Assembly (NCBI GenBank): GCA_025998875.1
Contig: AP024675.1
Span: 1,273,549 to 1,337,548, forward strand
Source: Bacteroidota bacterium
Lineage (GTDB): Bacteria; Bacteroidota; Rhodothermia; JANXDC01
DNA length: 64,000 bases
Direction of reading: 5' to 3'
Below, in pieces: positions 2,249 through 56,533 of this stretch (the first letter of the stretch is position 1; each line of letters opens with the position of its first letter). A program made the position numbers and the translations under genes. The notes under the pieces were generated by a model. The model searched no databases and was not told the DNA's origin. It worked only from the letters and a program-made list of their open reading frames with translations.

Positions 2249-3223
2249 TCAGAGGGGGGCAGCGTACAGGTGCACAAGCCGCTTTTCGTGCCACAGGGCA
2301 AATCCCACCAGGCCGCCTTCACGCTCTGGCCCGGGAATCTGAAGCTGTCCCACGCCCACCCGGGCAGGCAGGACCTCCCAGCGGGCCATTGTGAGCGCTT
2401 TGCAGAATGTCCCGAGCTCGGGGCCGGATTCGTTTTCCGCCCGAAGCAGGCCCAGCGCATAACTGCGCAACAGGCGTTCGTGCACCCCGCGCCAGAGTTC
2501 AGAATGGGCAAATACGTCCATCCCCAGCACCTTTGCTCTGTAGGTGGCAATGATGCCTACGATCCCCTCCTCTACGAGCGTCCGCGGGATGTGCAGAGGA
2601 TGCGCGTTGGACAGTACGGATGCATAGCTTTCCGTATCCGAGTACCGATCTGCCTCCTCCAGGGCCCGGAAGACTTCGTGCCAGATCAGGCTCTGATCGG
2701 GCAGGGGGGTTTTGCGTAGATACCAGTTGGACCGAAGGCTTGTGATTTTCCTGCGCCGCAGGACGATATCCGTGAGCGCCTCCCTTTCGACCTCAAACGC
2801 CCTCCGGAAGCCCCATCGGCCCCTCTCTACGCAGGAGACAGGGATCACATGTTCGCCCTTGTTCAGGAGCAGGCTGATGTTTACTGTGCGCGTCTGCATG
2901 CCGCCTGTGAGCAACGTGCCCTCCGGGATGAAGACCAGACTCGGCTTTTGCACGGACACGGATAGGCGGGGAACCGTGGGGGTGCGAAGCTCATCGACCT
3001 GTGCCCACCCCTCCCGGAGCGCCTCCTCCAGCAGGACGTAGGGAGATGAGGGCGATTGCGGCCAGCATGCCCTGAGCGGCCACAGCTCCAGGTCCTTCTG
3101 CTGTCGTATGGGCGGAAGGAGTTCCAGTTCCGCGGAGCCACCGAAAAGGGAAAGGACGTGCGCGCTTTCGGACATAGGTCTTTGCTCCCGCTGCGTGTTC
3201 CTGTTTCCCGATTTATGATGCAA
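2249..3223 (-). CDS. Hypothetical protein (324 aa), last gene of minus-strand zinc-finger/sigma cluster
   Basis: Long ORF with protein-like composition (W, F, Y, K present) unlike GC-artefact ORFs; start may be internal Met at ~3175. Confidence 0.45.
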   Translation of the reverse strand: MHHKSGNRNTQREQRPMSESAHVLSLFGGSAELELLPPIRQQKDLELWPLRACWPQSPSSPYVLLEEALREGWAQVDELRTPTVPRLSVSVQKPSLVFIPEGTLLTGGMQTRTVNISLLLNKGEHVIPVSCVERGRWGFRRAFEVEREALTDIVLRRRKITSLRSNWYLRKTPLPDQSLIWHEVFRALEEADRYSDTESYASVLSNAHPLHIPRTLVEEGIVGIIATYRAKVLGMDVFAHSELWRGVHERLLRSYALGLLRAENESGPELGTFCKALTMARWEVLPARVGVGQLQIPGPEREGGLVGFALWHEKRLVHLYAAPL

Positions 3224-3286: not shown

Positions 3287-3913
3287 CTATACCTGCCGGC
3301 TCTCTCGGGCGTGGCGCACGCTTCGGCTCCAGAATTGCCGCAGAGCTTCCGGGGTAAGCGCAAGCGGGAGGTGGTAGAATAGCTCCCGCACGCTCTCCCA
3401 GTGTTTCAGCAGAGGATAGAGACGAACAAGGCCCGGGAAGCACTCCGCTATCGAGTCCCAGCCCTCCGGGGTGCGGAGGGGTCCGGACAGGAGATCAGAG
3501 ATCTCCTTCCACCGGTAGCCCAGCTCCCGGAGCAGATAGAGCGCAAGCAAACGAACGTCATGGCGTCCCCATTCCGGTTCCTCGAGCTGATCGGCGTCAG
3601 ATGGCCGTGCTATAGGCGCTTCCAGGTCGGGATGGGGCCGCAGAATATCGGCTCCCAGCCGGGTCAGGATCTCCTCAACAATCCATCTCGGAATCCCCAG
3701 CCTGTGGGCGATTTCCGCCTCGGTGGGGGAGCGCTCCAGCTGCTGATAGAGCCAGCGCCAGGCCCGGAGTACGGCCCCAACGTGTCGGCGTGCCGAGGGG
3801 CTCAGATTCAGTAGAGGGCCCACAAAGCGGAGCATCTGCCAGCGAATGTGCTGTAGGGCGAAAGCAGAAAACGGAACCCCTCGATCCGGATCAAAGCGCC
3901 GCACCGCCTCCAA
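3287..3913 (-). CDS. Sigma-70 family RNA polymerase sigma factor (group 3 / FliA-like), regions 2.3-4; conserved region 2.2 lies upstream of first available start codon
   Basis: FDPDRGVPFSAFALQHIRWQM (region 2.3/2.4-like), SPTEAEIAHRLGI (region 3-like), LALYLLRELGYRWKEISDLL (region 4-like). Frame translated by hand upstream of the TTG at 3913 gives ...FEDFLQEGCIGLLEAV (region 2.2 consensus) with no ATG/GTG/TTG back to an in-frame TGA at 4223-4225. Confidence 0.55.
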   Translation of the reverse strand: MEAVRRFDPDRGVPFSAFALQHIRWQMLRFVGPLLNLSPSARRHVGAVLRAWRWLYQQLERSPTEAEIAHRLGIPRWIVEEILTRLGADILRPHPDLEAPIARPSDADQLEEPEWGRHDVRLLALYLLRELGYRWKEISDLLSGPLRTPEGWDSIAECFPGLVRLYPLLKHWESVRELFYHLPLALTPEALRQFWSRSVRHARESRQV

Positions 3914-4125
3914 GAGGCCGATACACCCCTCCTGAAGGAAGTCCTCGAAGCAGAACGCCCGCCGGAGTCCGCATCCGAACAGCCGTCTGCTTAATCGGTA
4001 CGCCTCCAGGCGGATTTGAGGTGTCAGCGCATCGAGCAGTACAGCATAGGCCCTCTCCTCACCTCGCTGGGCGCGCAGGACGAGAGGAAGCAGCGAATCC
4101 GGAGCGGCAGCAGGTACCTCCTCGT

Positions 4126-5199
4126 TTACCGGCTCAGAAGCAACAGCGTGTGGGGTCCGACCCGGAACGTGTCGGGGAGGTCGATCTTCGCCCCGAGCAG
4201 GTCGGTGCCAACGGGCCGAAGTTCAACGTCTCCGAGCAACACGGGTTCCCGCCAGGCCGGATCGTAAAGGGCCACCCGGACCCTCTGGCTTTTCCGTCCC
4301 CGCATGCCCAGGATCAGGCACATGCTATCCAGGCTTTGCTCTACCGCCCAGTTCCAGCCGGCCAGTCTGCCCCGGGCTACAGACCAGAAGTCCAGCAGAG
4401 GGGCGCTGTACATCTCCAATCTGGTCTGCCGCTGCCAGCTGGCCCGCCGTTGCCAGCGCGCGCGGGGGCGCTTGGAGGCCGCGATCCTCAAGGCCAGGAG
4501 GGTGCTGGATCGGGGCTCCGGGATTATGGCCTGGAGGGCCTGAGATATATGGTACCACAAGGAGGGGGGCAGTGCGCCGGGAAGTCGGGAGACCAGCAGT
4601 TCGGCCTCCGCCCGACAGGCCGGACAGCTCTGCAGGTGCTGTGCTGTCCTCAGGTAGCCCCCCCGTCGCAGAAAGCGTGCGAGGTTTCGGGGCGAGGGGC
4701 AGAGCCGACGGACGCTCTGACGGGCTTTCGCCTGCATTTCCCGAAAAGCCTCCCGGCACTCCGCGCACCGCTCCAGATGGGCGCGCGTGGATTCGGGCAG
4801 GGCGGGATGGAAAAAGGCTTCTTCTTCGGGGGCGAAAAGGGCCTCGCGGGGCAGGTCTGCGATCTCTTCGAGCACCTTCCACCGTTGCGGACAGCGCAAC
4901 AGCTTCCGAAGCTGGTCCCAGTCTCCCTCCCGGACAACGGCATCGAAGAGGATGCGGAGTTCTGCGGACGGACGCGCGCCGGTGGGCAGAAGCAGAATGG
5001 CCTCCGGAAGTCGGCCTCCCCGCTTCCGGGCCTGAGGGGTATGCAACCAGCGCCGGAGCTGCTCCTGGAAGATGTTGCGGGCTTCCCAGGGCACGAGCAC
5101 AACGTCTTCAGGCGGCCAGCTGGCCCGACGGACCTCGAAGTCCGGGGGCCAGTCCAGACCGGTCCACTCGAGCCCGAAGACCTGCACCACGGTTTTCAT
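4126..5199 (-). CDS. Hypothetical protein with two H-x3-C-x2-C (ZAS-like zinc-finger) motifs; candidate anti-sigma factor
   Basis: HLERCAEC (aa 141-148) and HLQSCPAC (aa 188-195); protein-like composition, whereas the overlapping plus-strand ORF 3790..5439 is Pro/Arg/Gly-rich. Confidence 0.5.
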   Translation of the reverse strand: MKTVVQVFGLEWTGLDWPPDFEVRRASWPPEDVVLVPWEARNIFQEQLRRWLHTPQARKRGGRLPEAILLLPTGARPSAELRILFDAVVREGDWDQLRKLLRCPQRWKVLEEIADLPREALFAPEEEAFFHPALPESTRAHLERCAECREAFREMQAKARQSVRRLCPSPRNLARFLRRGGYLRTAQHLQSCPACRAEAELLVSRLPGALPPSLWYHISQALQAIIPEPRSSTLLALRIAASKRPRARWQRRASWQRQTRLEMYSAPLLDFWSVARGRLAGWNWAVEQSLDSMCLILGMRGRKSQRVRVALYDPAWREPVLLGDVELRPVGTDLLGAKIDLPDTFRVGPHTLLLLSR

Positions 5200-5303
5200 C
5201 GTCCTCTTCTGCCCGGGGGAGCGCTGTATCGCTCAGGGTCGATGGAACTCCCCCTGGAATATGGCGCTCTGCCCGATCAAAAGAAAGCAGACCCTGAACC
5301 CCC

Positions 5304-7820
5304 TTACGGATTCGGCTTCAGGATTTGCTCGATGCGCGCGAGCGCGTCCTCCAGGTGCAGGCGCGTGTTGCGGTCCGGCACGCGCCGCAGCGCGCTCCGG
5401 ATTTCCCGTTGCAGGGCCTGCAGTTCTCCCCGCACATAGGGGCGGATGTCGGACTGGGATACGCTTAGGCTCATGCTCTCCCCAGAAGCGCCCGGGCTCG
5501 GGGGTGAGGGGGGTTCCTGGCGCATCAGATAGGCCATGCGCTCCAGATAGCCGCGCTGCAGGTTGCGTCGGAAGGGATCGATTGGTCGGGCGGTGGCCAG
5601 CTCCGACCAGACCCCACGGCGCAGATCCAGAAGCATATCGGCGAGCCGGTATGGAGGGGTTGAGCCGGCCAGGGCTTCGGCTTCGATCAGGCGTCCCATG
5701 CGGGACGGATCGAGCACCCGGTTGAGCACCCCGACCTGTAGCGTCCGCACGCGTTCCATTGCCCCCGCAGGCTCGATGCGGCGCAGGATCGCCGTGTCGA
5801 GCATCCAAGTCGGGGTCTGAAAGGCGTGTCGGATCAGGAAGTCCATGGCTGCCCGCTGCTTTTGCCGGGGCACAGGCTCATAGACCGGCCCTTCCTGGTC
5901 ATAGGTTTTACGGGTTCTATAGACGCCCCCGATGTTCGTGATCACATGTCCCATGTACCGATTCCACTGCGCCAGCACCTGTTCGTAGAGCTCGCGCAGG
6001 TCCGCATAATCCTTGCCCGGTGCGGAGGTCCAGCTGATCAGATTGGGCAGGATGCGCTTGAGGTTGGCGATTCCGTATTCGCCGGCCTTCATGGCGTCAT
6101 CGCCCAGGTCCTCGGTCTGCGAGGTGGGATCGACCGAGCTGGGGTCGCCGAATCGATACAGCGGGTCGCCCTCGTGCTCTCGGATCCAGGAATCCAGCAC
6201 GGGCTTTTCCTCATCCGGGGTACGCGCTCCCGGAATGGGGCGATAACCCCAGGCGATGGCGTAGACGTCATAGGGGCCGATGGCGGGCATCAGGCAGGCC
6301 CCATCGCCGGGCTGGGCCACGTAGTTGAATCGGGCGTAATCCATGATGGAGGGCGCCGTGCCCATGCGGCAGGTAAAGGTGGGCGAGCGCAGGGAGTCGA
6401 CCGGATAGGCGGAGCTGGCCTTCATGTTGTGCGGCAGGCCCAGGGTATGGCCGACCTCATGGGCGGCCACGAAGCGGATCAGCTGGCCCATTGTTTCTTC
6501 GTCGAACTGCACGGCACGCGCCTTCGGGTTCGCGGCGGCCGTCTGCACGAAGTACCAGTTCCGCAGCAGGTTCATCACGTTGTGATACCATCCAATGTCC
6601 GCCTCCAGGATCTCCCCGGAACGCGGGTCGTGCACGTTCGGGCCGTAGGCGTTCTGGATCTCCGAGGCGAAATACCGGATCACGGAATACCGCACGTCTT
6701 CGGGATTGAATTCCGGATCCTCTTCCGGACCGGGAGGATCTTTGGCGATGATGGCGTTTTTGAAGCCGGCCGCCTCGAAGGCCTTGTTCCAGTCCTCTAC
6801 GCCCTGTTTGAGGTATTTACGCCATTTTACGGGCGTGGCCGGATCGATGTAGTAGACGATGGGTTTTTGGGGTTCTACGAGTTCTCCGCGGGCAAAGGCC
6901 TCCGGATCCTTGGGTTCCAGGCGCCAGCGCACGATGTAGCGCCGTCTGGCGGCGCGCTGTTCGTCACGTCCATAGTCCACCTGTTCGATGCGGAAGTAGC
7001 CCACGCGTTCGTCATAGAGGCGGGGCATCATGGGCTCTTTGGGCAGGAGGATCATGGAATGGTGCATCTCGAGCGTAATCGTGCGCGTGGAGGCCTGCGA
7101 GGGGGGTTCCTGGGCGTCATAGGTGAGCAGGTTGCGCACCTCGATGTTGAGCGGATAGCTGTGCGCGTACAGAAGCAGGGTGCGGGATTCGTCCAGGCGC
7201 GTTACCCGAAAACGCTCTCGGCGAGTTCGGTCCAGGCCCAGTACGGGTACGTCGCGCGTGAAGAGCTCCGTGATCTCGATGACGACGGAGTGCGAGTCGG
7301 GCCCGATGGCCTGGATGTCGAAGGCGCGGATGACGGGCTCGAAGTTCGAGTTGCGTACGGCCTGGTATATGGGCAGGGAATCGGCCGCCACGTTCTGGTA
7401 GGAGACCGTGCGCAGGAGCACCCTATCTGCCAGACGTTCCCAGCGCACCACCTGTCGGTTGAGTTCTTCACCCCCGTAGCCAATGCCGTTGGCCGTTCGG
7501 GCGATGCGGCTCACCCAGAGCATCTCACGCCCCAGGAGGCTATCGGGGATCTCGTAGTAGTAACGGGACCCGACCTGGTGGACATCGAACAGCCCCTTAT
7601 CTGTGCGCGCATCCTGGGGGATCACCTGCCGATAGGGTCGGGGCCCCGTCTGAGGCTGGGATGGGCGAGGGGCCGGACTTTGAGTCTGGTTCTGCCCGGA
7701 TGCGGTCTCGGTCCGTGGCGGGGCCGCAGAGCCAGCAGGCGAGCTCGGGCCAGGGGTGCGCGTAGTGGCACAACCGATCAGCAAAGAGGGGATAACAAAG
7801 AACCCGATAACAAAACGCAT
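5304..7820 (-). CDS. Zinc-dependent metalloprotease lipoprotein (HEXXHXXGXXH zincin)
   Basis: AAHEVGHTLGLPHN motif; start placed at internal ATG 7818-7820 giving lipoprotein signal MRFVIGFFVIPSLLIGC; Pro/Ser-rich linker after signal. Confidence 0.75.
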   Translation of the reverse strand: MRFVIGFFVIPSLLIGCATTRTPGPSSPAGSAAPPRTETASGQNQTQSPAPRPSQPQTGPRPYRQVIPQDARTDKGLFDVHQVGSRYYYEIPDSLLGREMLWVSRIARTANGIGYGGEELNRQVVRWERLADRVLLRTVSYQNVAADSLPIYQAVRNSNFEPVIRAFDIQAIGPDSHSVVIEITELFTRDVPVLGLDRTRRERFRVTRLDESRTLLLYAHSYPLNIEVRNLLTYDAQEPPSQASTRTITLEMHHSMILLPKEPMMPRLYDERVGYFRIEQVDYGRDEQRAARRRYIVRWRLEPKDPEAFARGELVEPQKPIVYYIDPATPVKWRKYLKQGVEDWNKAFEAAGFKNAIIAKDPPGPEEDPEFNPEDVRYSVIRYFASEIQNAYGPNVHDPRSGEILEADIGWYHNVMNLLRNWYFVQTAAANPKARAVQFDEETMGQLIRFVAAHEVGHTLGLPHNMKASSAYPVDSLRSPTFTCRMGTAPSIMDYARFNYVAQPGDGACLMPAIGPYDVYAIAWGYRPIPGARTPDEEKPVLDSWIREHEGDPLYRFGDPSSVDPTSQTEDLGDDAMKAGEYGIANLKRILPNLISWTSAPGKDYADLRELYEQVLAQWNRYMGHVITNIGGVYRTRKTYDQEGPVYEPVPRQKQRAAMDFLIRHAFQTPTWMLDTAILRRIEPAGAMERVRTLQVGVLNRVLDPSRMGRLIEAEALAGSTPPYRLADMLLDLRRGVWSELATARPIDPFRRNLQRGYLERMAYLMRQEPPSPPSPGASGESMSLSVSQSDIRPYVRGELQALQREIRSALRRVPDRNTRLHLEDALARIEQILKPNP

Positions 7821-7973
7821 GGACGTGCTTCCTTCGTCTCTCGGCTCTGCAAGATAGGCCCTGCAGGGGATCAAGAAACGGACGTATCGTAACATTATCG
7901 TGAAGAACGGGATCTTCTTGCCCGTGCTTTGCGTATAGAGCACGCTTGATGCCCGGACTCCGCCTGGCAGGGA

Positions 7974-56124: not shown

Positions 56125-56533
56125 CCCCCTGGAGGCTGCTCAGCAGGTTCTGCAGGCTCTGGACCAGCTCCAGAAACTCCGTGGGCGGAATCTCCCGGAT
56201 CACCTCTCCCGTGTCCGGATCGATCAGGCGCGTGATGATACGGCCTGTTTCCGGATGCACCTGAAAGGTAATCGCGATCCGATTGGCCCGCAAGACCATA
56301 TCCCGCTGCCGGAGCCATTCCTGCAGATGCCGGATCTGTAGGCCCAGCTCGGAAAGCTCAACGGCTTCCTGAAGCCCGGCGTTGTTCTGCCGCTCCGGGG
56401 TATTCGAGAGCTCGGATTCGGAAAAGTGCGTCGATCGATCCGAAGCCGTCGCCTCTGAGGGGGCGACCGGACGTACGGGGGGAAGGGGGGCCGGCAGGGG
56501 TTGTATGCGTTCTATGGGTGCGAGGTTGGCCAT
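56045..56533 (-). CDS. flaG: Flagellar protein FlaG
   Basis: ITFQVHPETGRIITRLIDPDTGEVIREIPPTEFLEL matches FlaG core. Confidence 0.7.
   Translation of the reverse strand: MANLAPIERIQPLPAPLPPVRPVAPSEATASDRSTHFSESELSNTPERQNNAGLQEAVELSELGLQIRHLQEWLRQRDMVLRANRIAITFQVHPETGRIITRLIDPDTGEVIREIPPTEFLELVQSLQNLLSSLQGDDHESNGAPAAHRAPYGADPERLAHS

Follow-up and report, generated by a model that had tools for sequence, protein, structure and literature searches.

The window, by which we mean the whole 64-kb stretch of DNA that was analyzed (64,000 nucleotides), carries on its minus strand, in this order, a DUF4953 met-zincin, the open reading frame (ORF) 4126..5199, a sigma-70-type frame and an ARPP-1 gene (Table 1), in a neighborhood of housekeeping genes. 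The nr entry for the product of ORF 4126..5199 is a hypothetical protein, KatS3mg041_1161, from a Bacteroidota bacterium MAG. An initial annotation, made from the letters of this DNA, had noticed the H-x3-C-x2-C motif twice in this 357-residue protein, about 47 residues apart and directly upstream of a sigma gene. We confirmed both observations: HLERCAEC and HLQSCPAC lie at residues 141–148 and 188–195, exactly 47 residues apart, and the sigma-70-type frame is next on the same strand. Among 100,000 shuffled versions of the 357-residue protein, 0.2% contained at least one such motif and none contained two. The six-frame translation of the window (128,000 codons) holds three matches, two of them within ORF 4126..5199; the third, HSCRCRIC, lies at position 56316 on the plus strand in frame 3.

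Independent JGI, ENA, Logan and NCBI assemblies contain the identical protein on no fewer than 24 contigs, and the two nucleotide differences that the ORF shows among them are silent at the protein level. Since the ORF is called in independent assemblies and divergent homologs exist (27–44% identity), we regard it as a real gene. An antisense open frame of 549 residues spans the whole gene, and others of 150–240 residues overlap it. None of these overlapping frames has homologs; they are expected at a GC content of ~65%, and the minus-strand ORF is the coding one. The upstream neighbor is a large secreted met-zincin with a DUF5118-DUF5117-DUF4953 architecture (E = 1.5e-125), whose start is placed differently by different gene callers (773, 838 or 879 residues).

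Table 1 Features of the locus, in window coordinates.
Feature	Position	Strand	Remarks
ARPP-1 gene (PF20208)	2249..3223	-	E = 3e-43; downstream of the sigma gene
Partner sigma-70-family open frame	3287..4222	-	-1 frame relative to ORF 4126..5199
C-terminal domain of partner sigma	3287-3600	-	
Double zinc-motif protein ORF	4126..5199	-	Complete, 357 aa + TAA stop
N-terminal alpha/beta domain	4900..5199	-	aa 1 to ~100; putative flavodoxin/CheY-like fold (AF2)
Putative zinc module 1	4702..4893	-	aa 103-166; proposed ligands C103 (nt 4893-4891), H141, C145, C148
Motif 1, HLERCAEC	4779-4756	-	aa 141-148
Putative zinc module 2	4516..4701	-	aa 167-228; ZAS-type C167-x20-H188-x3-C192-x2-C195
Motif 2, HLQSCPAC	4638-4615	-	aa 188-195
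Disordered Arg-rich linker, predicted	4387..4512	-	aa 230-271; pLDDT <50; poorly conserved in alignment A1
C-terminal beta-sandwich domain	4129..4386	-	aa 272-357 (AF2); Ig/SOD-like
Antisense open frame	3790-5439	+	549 aa
Met-zincin, upstream neighbor	5304-7943	-	DUF5118-DUF5117-DUF4953

We collected the protein family by scanning 1.84 billion cluster representatives exhaustively with HMMER, which returned 58 proteins at E ≤ 1e-3, 30 of them at E ≤ 1e-10. Most members are 330–400 residues long and align across residues 5–210 of the window protein. A word-indexed protein search returned nothing beyond the protein itself and three fragments. Scanning the GTDB genome contigs with family patterns gave no confirmed relative, and two other alignments offered no usable conserved stretch. 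A metagenome scan yielded seven loci, mostly short, one of them from the same organism. The comparison set comprised 59 proteins, the window protein counted, and was formed from the 58 hits by removing P0053, an unrelated repeat protein, and adding P0059.

Both motifs are conserved features of this family, being kept in 38 of the 59 proteins compared (the window protein and 37 relatives). The initial annotation had taken homologs lacking the Cys and His residues as a mark against its proposal; seven family members have lost all of the zinc ligands. Three elements stand out as conserved in the family alignment, A1: the N-terminal region, which carries the signatures WGF..WP.DL, GRLP.AILYLP and FDAVV.EGDW..LR.LL.CP; motif 1, in which conservation of H141, C145 and C148 reaches 90% or more; and a "CP" at 167–168 preceding motif 2. 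Two relatives depart from the common layout. P0007 (L009 1003-1923) has a permuted domain order, in which a beta-sandwich-like segment separates the N-domain from the two zinc motifs, and ends directly after motif 2. P0019 (664 residues) lacks motif 2 and combines the N-domain and motif 1 with a PD-(D/E)XK nuclease domain (PDDEXK_1, E = 3.9e-36); either a true fusion or a chimera of the assembly could explain it.

Upstream of each motif stands a Cys-Pro, beginning at C103 and at C167, that is kept or lost along with its motif. A Cys or His occupies position 167 in 37 of the 38 relatives with motif 2 versus 2 of the 19 without it (Fisher p = 2e-11, uncorrected for phylogeny), and position 103 in 40 of the 41 with motif 1 versus 5 of the 12 without it (Fisher p = 4e-5, likewise uncorrected). 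The crossed pairs, position 103 versus motif 2 and position 167 versus motif 1, reach p values of only ~0.02–0.04. Because each upstream Cys tracks its own motif, the pattern points to two four-ligand zinc sites, predicted to be formed by C103/H141/C145/C148 (site 1) and C167/H188/C192/C195 (site 2). From first ligand to His, site 2 spans 18–25 residues in the family (mode 21), as in RsiW, RsrA and ChrR, and C167 of the window protein lies 21 residues ahead of H188. The corresponding distance for site 1 is 36–53 residues, which is non-canonical (about 20–26 for zinc-binding anti-sigma, or ZAS, domains). The fourth ligand of the ZAS signature is Cys or His (PMC4598750), with which site 2 agrees; zinc-free anti-sigma domains also exist, RseA being one (PMC4598750). 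The annotation's tandem duplication found partial backing: profile-profile comparison of repeat 1 with repeat 2 by hhalign gave a probability of 84% over 25 columns, a weak likeness that is compatible with an internal duplication without proving it.

AlphaFold2 (AF2), run with the family alignment, modeled the protein with confidence (pLDDT 82.8, pTM 0.62). The model has an N-terminal alpha/beta domain, part of a confidently modeled region reaching to about residue 130, followed by central helices (residues 136–225), a predicted disordered linker and a C-terminal beta-sandwich. Thus, the parts that had been called otherwise unrecognizable are predicted to include a CheY-like N-domain and a beta-sandwich C-domain. 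The N-domain matches no Pfam or NCBIfam model, and its motifs (WP.DL, GRLP.AILYLP and FDAVV.EGDW) do not resemble the receiver signature. Module 1 is modeled with helices at 136–144 and 146–164 and module 2 with four, at 170–179, 183–191, 193–205 and 212–225. At both sites the model places the His at the end of a helix and the CxxC at the start of the next. Structure prediction had been proposed in the initial annotation as a check on the zinc sites. A fold search with the zinc module recovered no anti-sigma domains, and Foldseek found nothing significant in the PDB. The protein has no transmembrane segment and is expected to be soluble.

Sequence kinship to known anti-sigma domains is faint. 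Pfam zf-HC2 (PF13490), the search suggested together with the initial reading, scores 16.3 bits on the window protein and so falls short of its 22.2-bit cut-off, and no Pfam or NCBIfam model rises above threshold anywhere along the 357 residues. Weak zf-HC2 matches occur in 12 of 30 family members (best 21.8 bits), and NCBIfam gives weak anti-sigma matches on both motifs. When a profile of repeat 2 (A4) was compared with all PDB sequences, ZAS proteins ranked first, weakly: DdvA (8rlz, E = 0.004), RslA (3hug, E = 0.011), RsiW (5wuq, E = 0.033) and ChrR (E = 0.11), with a CHAT protein bearing a DdvA-type domain also among the top matches. The alignment of A4 with RsiW begins at the "CP" and sets C167 opposite the RsiW zinc ligand C3. 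The whole-family profile matches RsiW at motif 1 (E = 0.11). All of these PDB and NCBIfam matches are weak (E 0.001–0.1).

A further connection runs through P0047, P0048, P0056 and P0058, tandem zf-HC2 proteins to which phmmer ties the zinc module and which clear the zf-HC2 cut-off at 25.6–32.6 bits. They share the zf-HC2 domain, a linker helix, the "CP" and a second H-x3-C-x2-C, and are homologous to residues 137–221 of the window protein. They differ in carrying the double arrangement at the N-terminus, with no CheY-like N-domain, and two of them have a membrane segment. The gene for P0047 directly follows an ECF sigma gene, in the classical order, so ordinary anti-sigma settings do include tandem zf-HC2. 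We found no description of this architecture in the literature on tandem ZAS or zf-HC2 domains.

We compared the gene neighborhoods of the relatives. A homologous sigma gene lies directly downstream in seven of eight informative cases (L009, L010, L012, L014, L016, L017 and L019), the exception being L011, where just 57 downstream codons are present. The two genes are 0–190 nt apart or overlap by 8 nt, and their adjacency holds at 27–40% identity across very different surroundings. The third gene varies, being DUF4097 in one case, a GAF histidine kinase with a response regulator or a caspase-like peptidase in others, and ARPP-1 in the window. The conserved unit is thus the gene pair and not a triplet, since the third gene differs between relatives.

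ARPP-1 was considered as part of a conserved three-gene module and rejected, its place being taken by a different gene in every relative. It is possibly a member of the regulon or operon in this genome only, or without significance. ARPP, described only through computational analysis, is predicted to act on sugars as an enzyme of ADP-ribose-related conflict systems (PMC9503650). No ARG or rhodanese-phosphatase partner of ARPP-1 was present among the called neighbors, and the sequences upstream of ORF 4126..5199 and of ARPP-1 share no promoter-like word of at least 7 nt. Membership of a defense system was likewise rejected: PADLOC gave just a weak MzaA match to sigma region 2, amid housekeeping genes. 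At L014 (8760-13212) and L010 (1-407 and 12510-13140), the pair stands beside genes for a caspase-like peptidase C14 and large TPR/NPHP3-type, WD40 and MZB-domain proteins. Those neighborhoods are typical of conflict or signaling islands of multicellular bacteria, unlike the window.

These data bear on whether the protein has anything to do with the sigma factor. It could instead be a zinc-finger protein of unrelated function, for example one that binds nucleic acid, its position reflecting operon packing and its motif likeness convergence. The sub-threshold zf-HC2 score, the fold search that found no anti-sigma domains and the joining of the N-domain and motif 1 to a nuclease domain in P0019 would suit such a protein. 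However, the same sigma subfamily is adjacent despite low identity and very different neighborhoods, the modeled ligands sit on helices and not on zinc-ribbon knuckles, and the top-ranked PDB matches are all ZAS, so that we consider an unrelated zinc protein very unlikely. As its gene sits just upstream of the sigma gene, the protein is most likely the dedicated regulator of that sigma factor.

The partner sigma is itself unusual. Read from upstream of 3913, its frame scores 43.7 bits for Sigma70_r2 and 28.2 bits for Sigma70_r3, and its best NCBIfam and PDB matches are FliA/WhiG, SigB/F/G, RpoS, SigA and RpoH, not ECF. In a profile search of 5.8 billion proteins, scores of ~300 bits went to the sigma of the window itself and to one relative, and then dropped to 90 bits for generic RpoH-like proteins that cover half of the query; this drop marks the partner as an outlying, group-3-like sigma. 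Its C-terminal 100 residues are conserved in the subfamily (..LVLAILHE..W..I..L..P...W..V..LFQ.PPP.LT.EALRQWYSR), and in the window, L009, L010, L012, L014 and L017 this domain was matched by no region-4 model in Pfam and no PDB sigma. This domain may be some other DNA-binding domain, or a region 4 interrupted by a large insertion. A ZAS protein is usually paired with an ECF sigma, a group 4 factor that has just regions 2 and 4. Region 4 is the normal contact of class-I anti-sigma domains, and the common gene order is sigma followed by anti-sigma, the reverse of the regulator-first order here.

Such departures leave room for a positive partner of the sigma factor, namely a co-factor, chaperone or adaptor for its folding, stability or promoter use, in which zinc would be purely structural. 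Conserved adjacency alone does not give the sign of regulation, a sigma without a recognizable region 4 might need a helper in promoter recognition, and the regulator-first order is unusual in anti-sigma pairs. Yet every detectable relative of the zinc module is an anti-sigma domain and no activator family was matched, and we judge a positive role unlikely.

The junction between the two genes differs from that of the relatives. ORF 4126..5199 ends at a TAA (4128-4126), and the sigma frame, in -1 relative to it, is open from 4222, 32 codons upstream of that stop. Between 4222 and TTG 3913 the sigma frame contains no ATG, GTG or TTG. TTG 3913 itself falls inside region 2, which needs codons upstream of 3913; gene callers place the sigma start at 3913 or 3904. 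Near-cognate CTG codons are in frame at 4093 and 4078, and a strong GAGGAGG lies at 4123-4117 on the minus strand with no start codon at the proper distance. We rejected a sequencing error, as the junction is identical in eight other assemblies. In the relatives, the sigma gene is separate and has an ATG and a Shine-Dalgarno sequence of its own, and in L016 the sigma ATG accounts for the 8-nt overlap with the upstream stop.

The initial annotation had raised a possible fusion of the two proteins. Production of the ORF and the sigma as one chain, by programmed -1 frameshifting or transcriptional slippage, would account for a sigma frame without a start codon, given the 32 open codons in the -1 frame and a first ATG, GTG or TTG that comes after region 2 has begun, all the same in the eight assemblies. 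However, the overlap contains no X XXY YYZ slippery heptamer and no homopolymer run of five or more, and at 65% GC chance alone is expected to leave an overlap of such length open. Because of the missing slippery site and homopolymer run, and because the relatives carry separate, ATG-started sigma genes, we regard a fusion across the TAA and the frame change as extremely improbable. Translation of the sigma from CTG 4093, a truncated product from 3913 and a recently inactivated gene are possibilities.

We propose that the protein is a soluble cytoplasmic anti-sigma factor, with a probability of about 0.62. The double zinc module would bind the adjacent sigma, and the flanking domains or the cysteines would take the releasing signal. 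In such a mechanism, the central helical module would hold two ZAS-type zinc sites, site 2 with canonical class-I spacing, and the zinc-stabilized helices would bind and occlude the sigma. Input for release could come through the CheY-like N-domain, through the C-terminal beta-sandwich, or through oxidation or zinc loss at the Cys sites. That the protein binds zinc, binds the sigma and inhibits rather than activates it is inferred, as is the nature of the signal. The anti-sigma module suggested in the initial annotation is partly supported, by the motifs, the fourth ligands, the repeat-2 profile and the sigma linkage, but not by the zf-HC2 threshold or the class of the partner. The anti-sigma reading is weakened by the sub-threshold zf-HC2 score and the weakness of the other matches, by a non-ECF sigma without detectable region 4, by the regulator-first order and by the seven ligand-less members. 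The protein is, on balance, a probable atypical anti-sigma factor.

One form of this anti-sigma function, in line with the redox or metal sensing mentioned in the initial annotation, would be an RsrA-like thiol/redox or metal sensor, in which the sigma is freed when oxidation of a CxxC drives zinc out of one site or both. The protein resembles RsrA in being soluble and without a transmembrane segment, it has six conserved cysteines in two sites, and the organism comes from hot-spring metagenomes. Most ZAS domains, however, use zinc structurally and not as redox sensors (PMC4598750), and the CheY-like and beta-sandwich domains are better candidates for signal input. Some relatives without one or both sites also retain the sigma-linked architecture, and no thioredoxin-type regulon genes lie nearby. 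We therefore hold a redox or metal sensor to be an improbable sub-case of the anti-sigma reading.

A more far-reaching proposal, which is tentative and quite doubtful as a whole, is that of a new class of cytoplasmic sigma regulator. Here, a three-domain non-ECF sigma-like factor, with a C-domain that is not a recognizable region 4, would be under the control of a pseudo-receiver, a beta-sandwich and two tandem zinc-clamped anti-sigma repeats, each repeat gripping a different sigma domain. The sigma of the window would be made only by ribosomes that finish the regulator gene and re-initiate at a near-cognate codon such as CTG 4093, which would tie its synthesis to that of the regulator.

Comparison with known systems indicates what the probable anti-sigma factor shares and where it departs. 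With the ZAS/ZASD proteins of the zf-HC2 type (PF13490; RsiW, RslA, ChrR, RsrA, DdvA) it has in common the H-x3-C-x2-C with an upstream Cys/His as fourth ligand, ligands modeled where one helix ends and the next begins, and a gene that adjoins one of the sigma-70 family. It differs in having two tandem sites in mid-protein, behind a 100-residue alpha/beta domain, instead of at the N-terminus, in missing the Pfam threshold while being paired with a non-ECF sigma, and in the first ligand-to-His spacing of site 1 (36–53 versus about 21–26). RsrA of Streptomyces is also soluble, cytoplasmic, cysteine-rich and free of a membrane anchor, but consists of a single domain of ~105 residues that has one zinc site, and its partner is the ECF factor sigma R. 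ChrR is likewise a soluble multi-domain protein that combines a ZAS domain with a C-terminal beta-rich domain that could take input, whereas its anti-sigma domain has one zinc site, there is no N-terminal alpha/beta domain and the C-domain is a cupin in place of the Ig/SOD-like sandwich. PhyR and RssB, sigma regulators with receiver domains, would share with it the coupling of a CheY-like fold, putative here, to sigma control.

The practical value of the finding is modest, the family being rare. Known zinc-binding anti-sigma domains occur singly, at the N-terminus, and control ECF sigma factors. The present family would extend the ZAS principle to two tandem zinc sites set within a soluble protein, flanked on either side by an additional and probably sensory domain, and to a partner sigma that is non-ECF and without a recognizable promoter -35-binding domain. 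If this is true, the anti-sigma domain would be re-usable for other classes of sigma factor, and the pair would provide a handle on an uncharacterized sigma subfamily of hot-spring Bacteroidota and other organisms known mainly from metagenomes.
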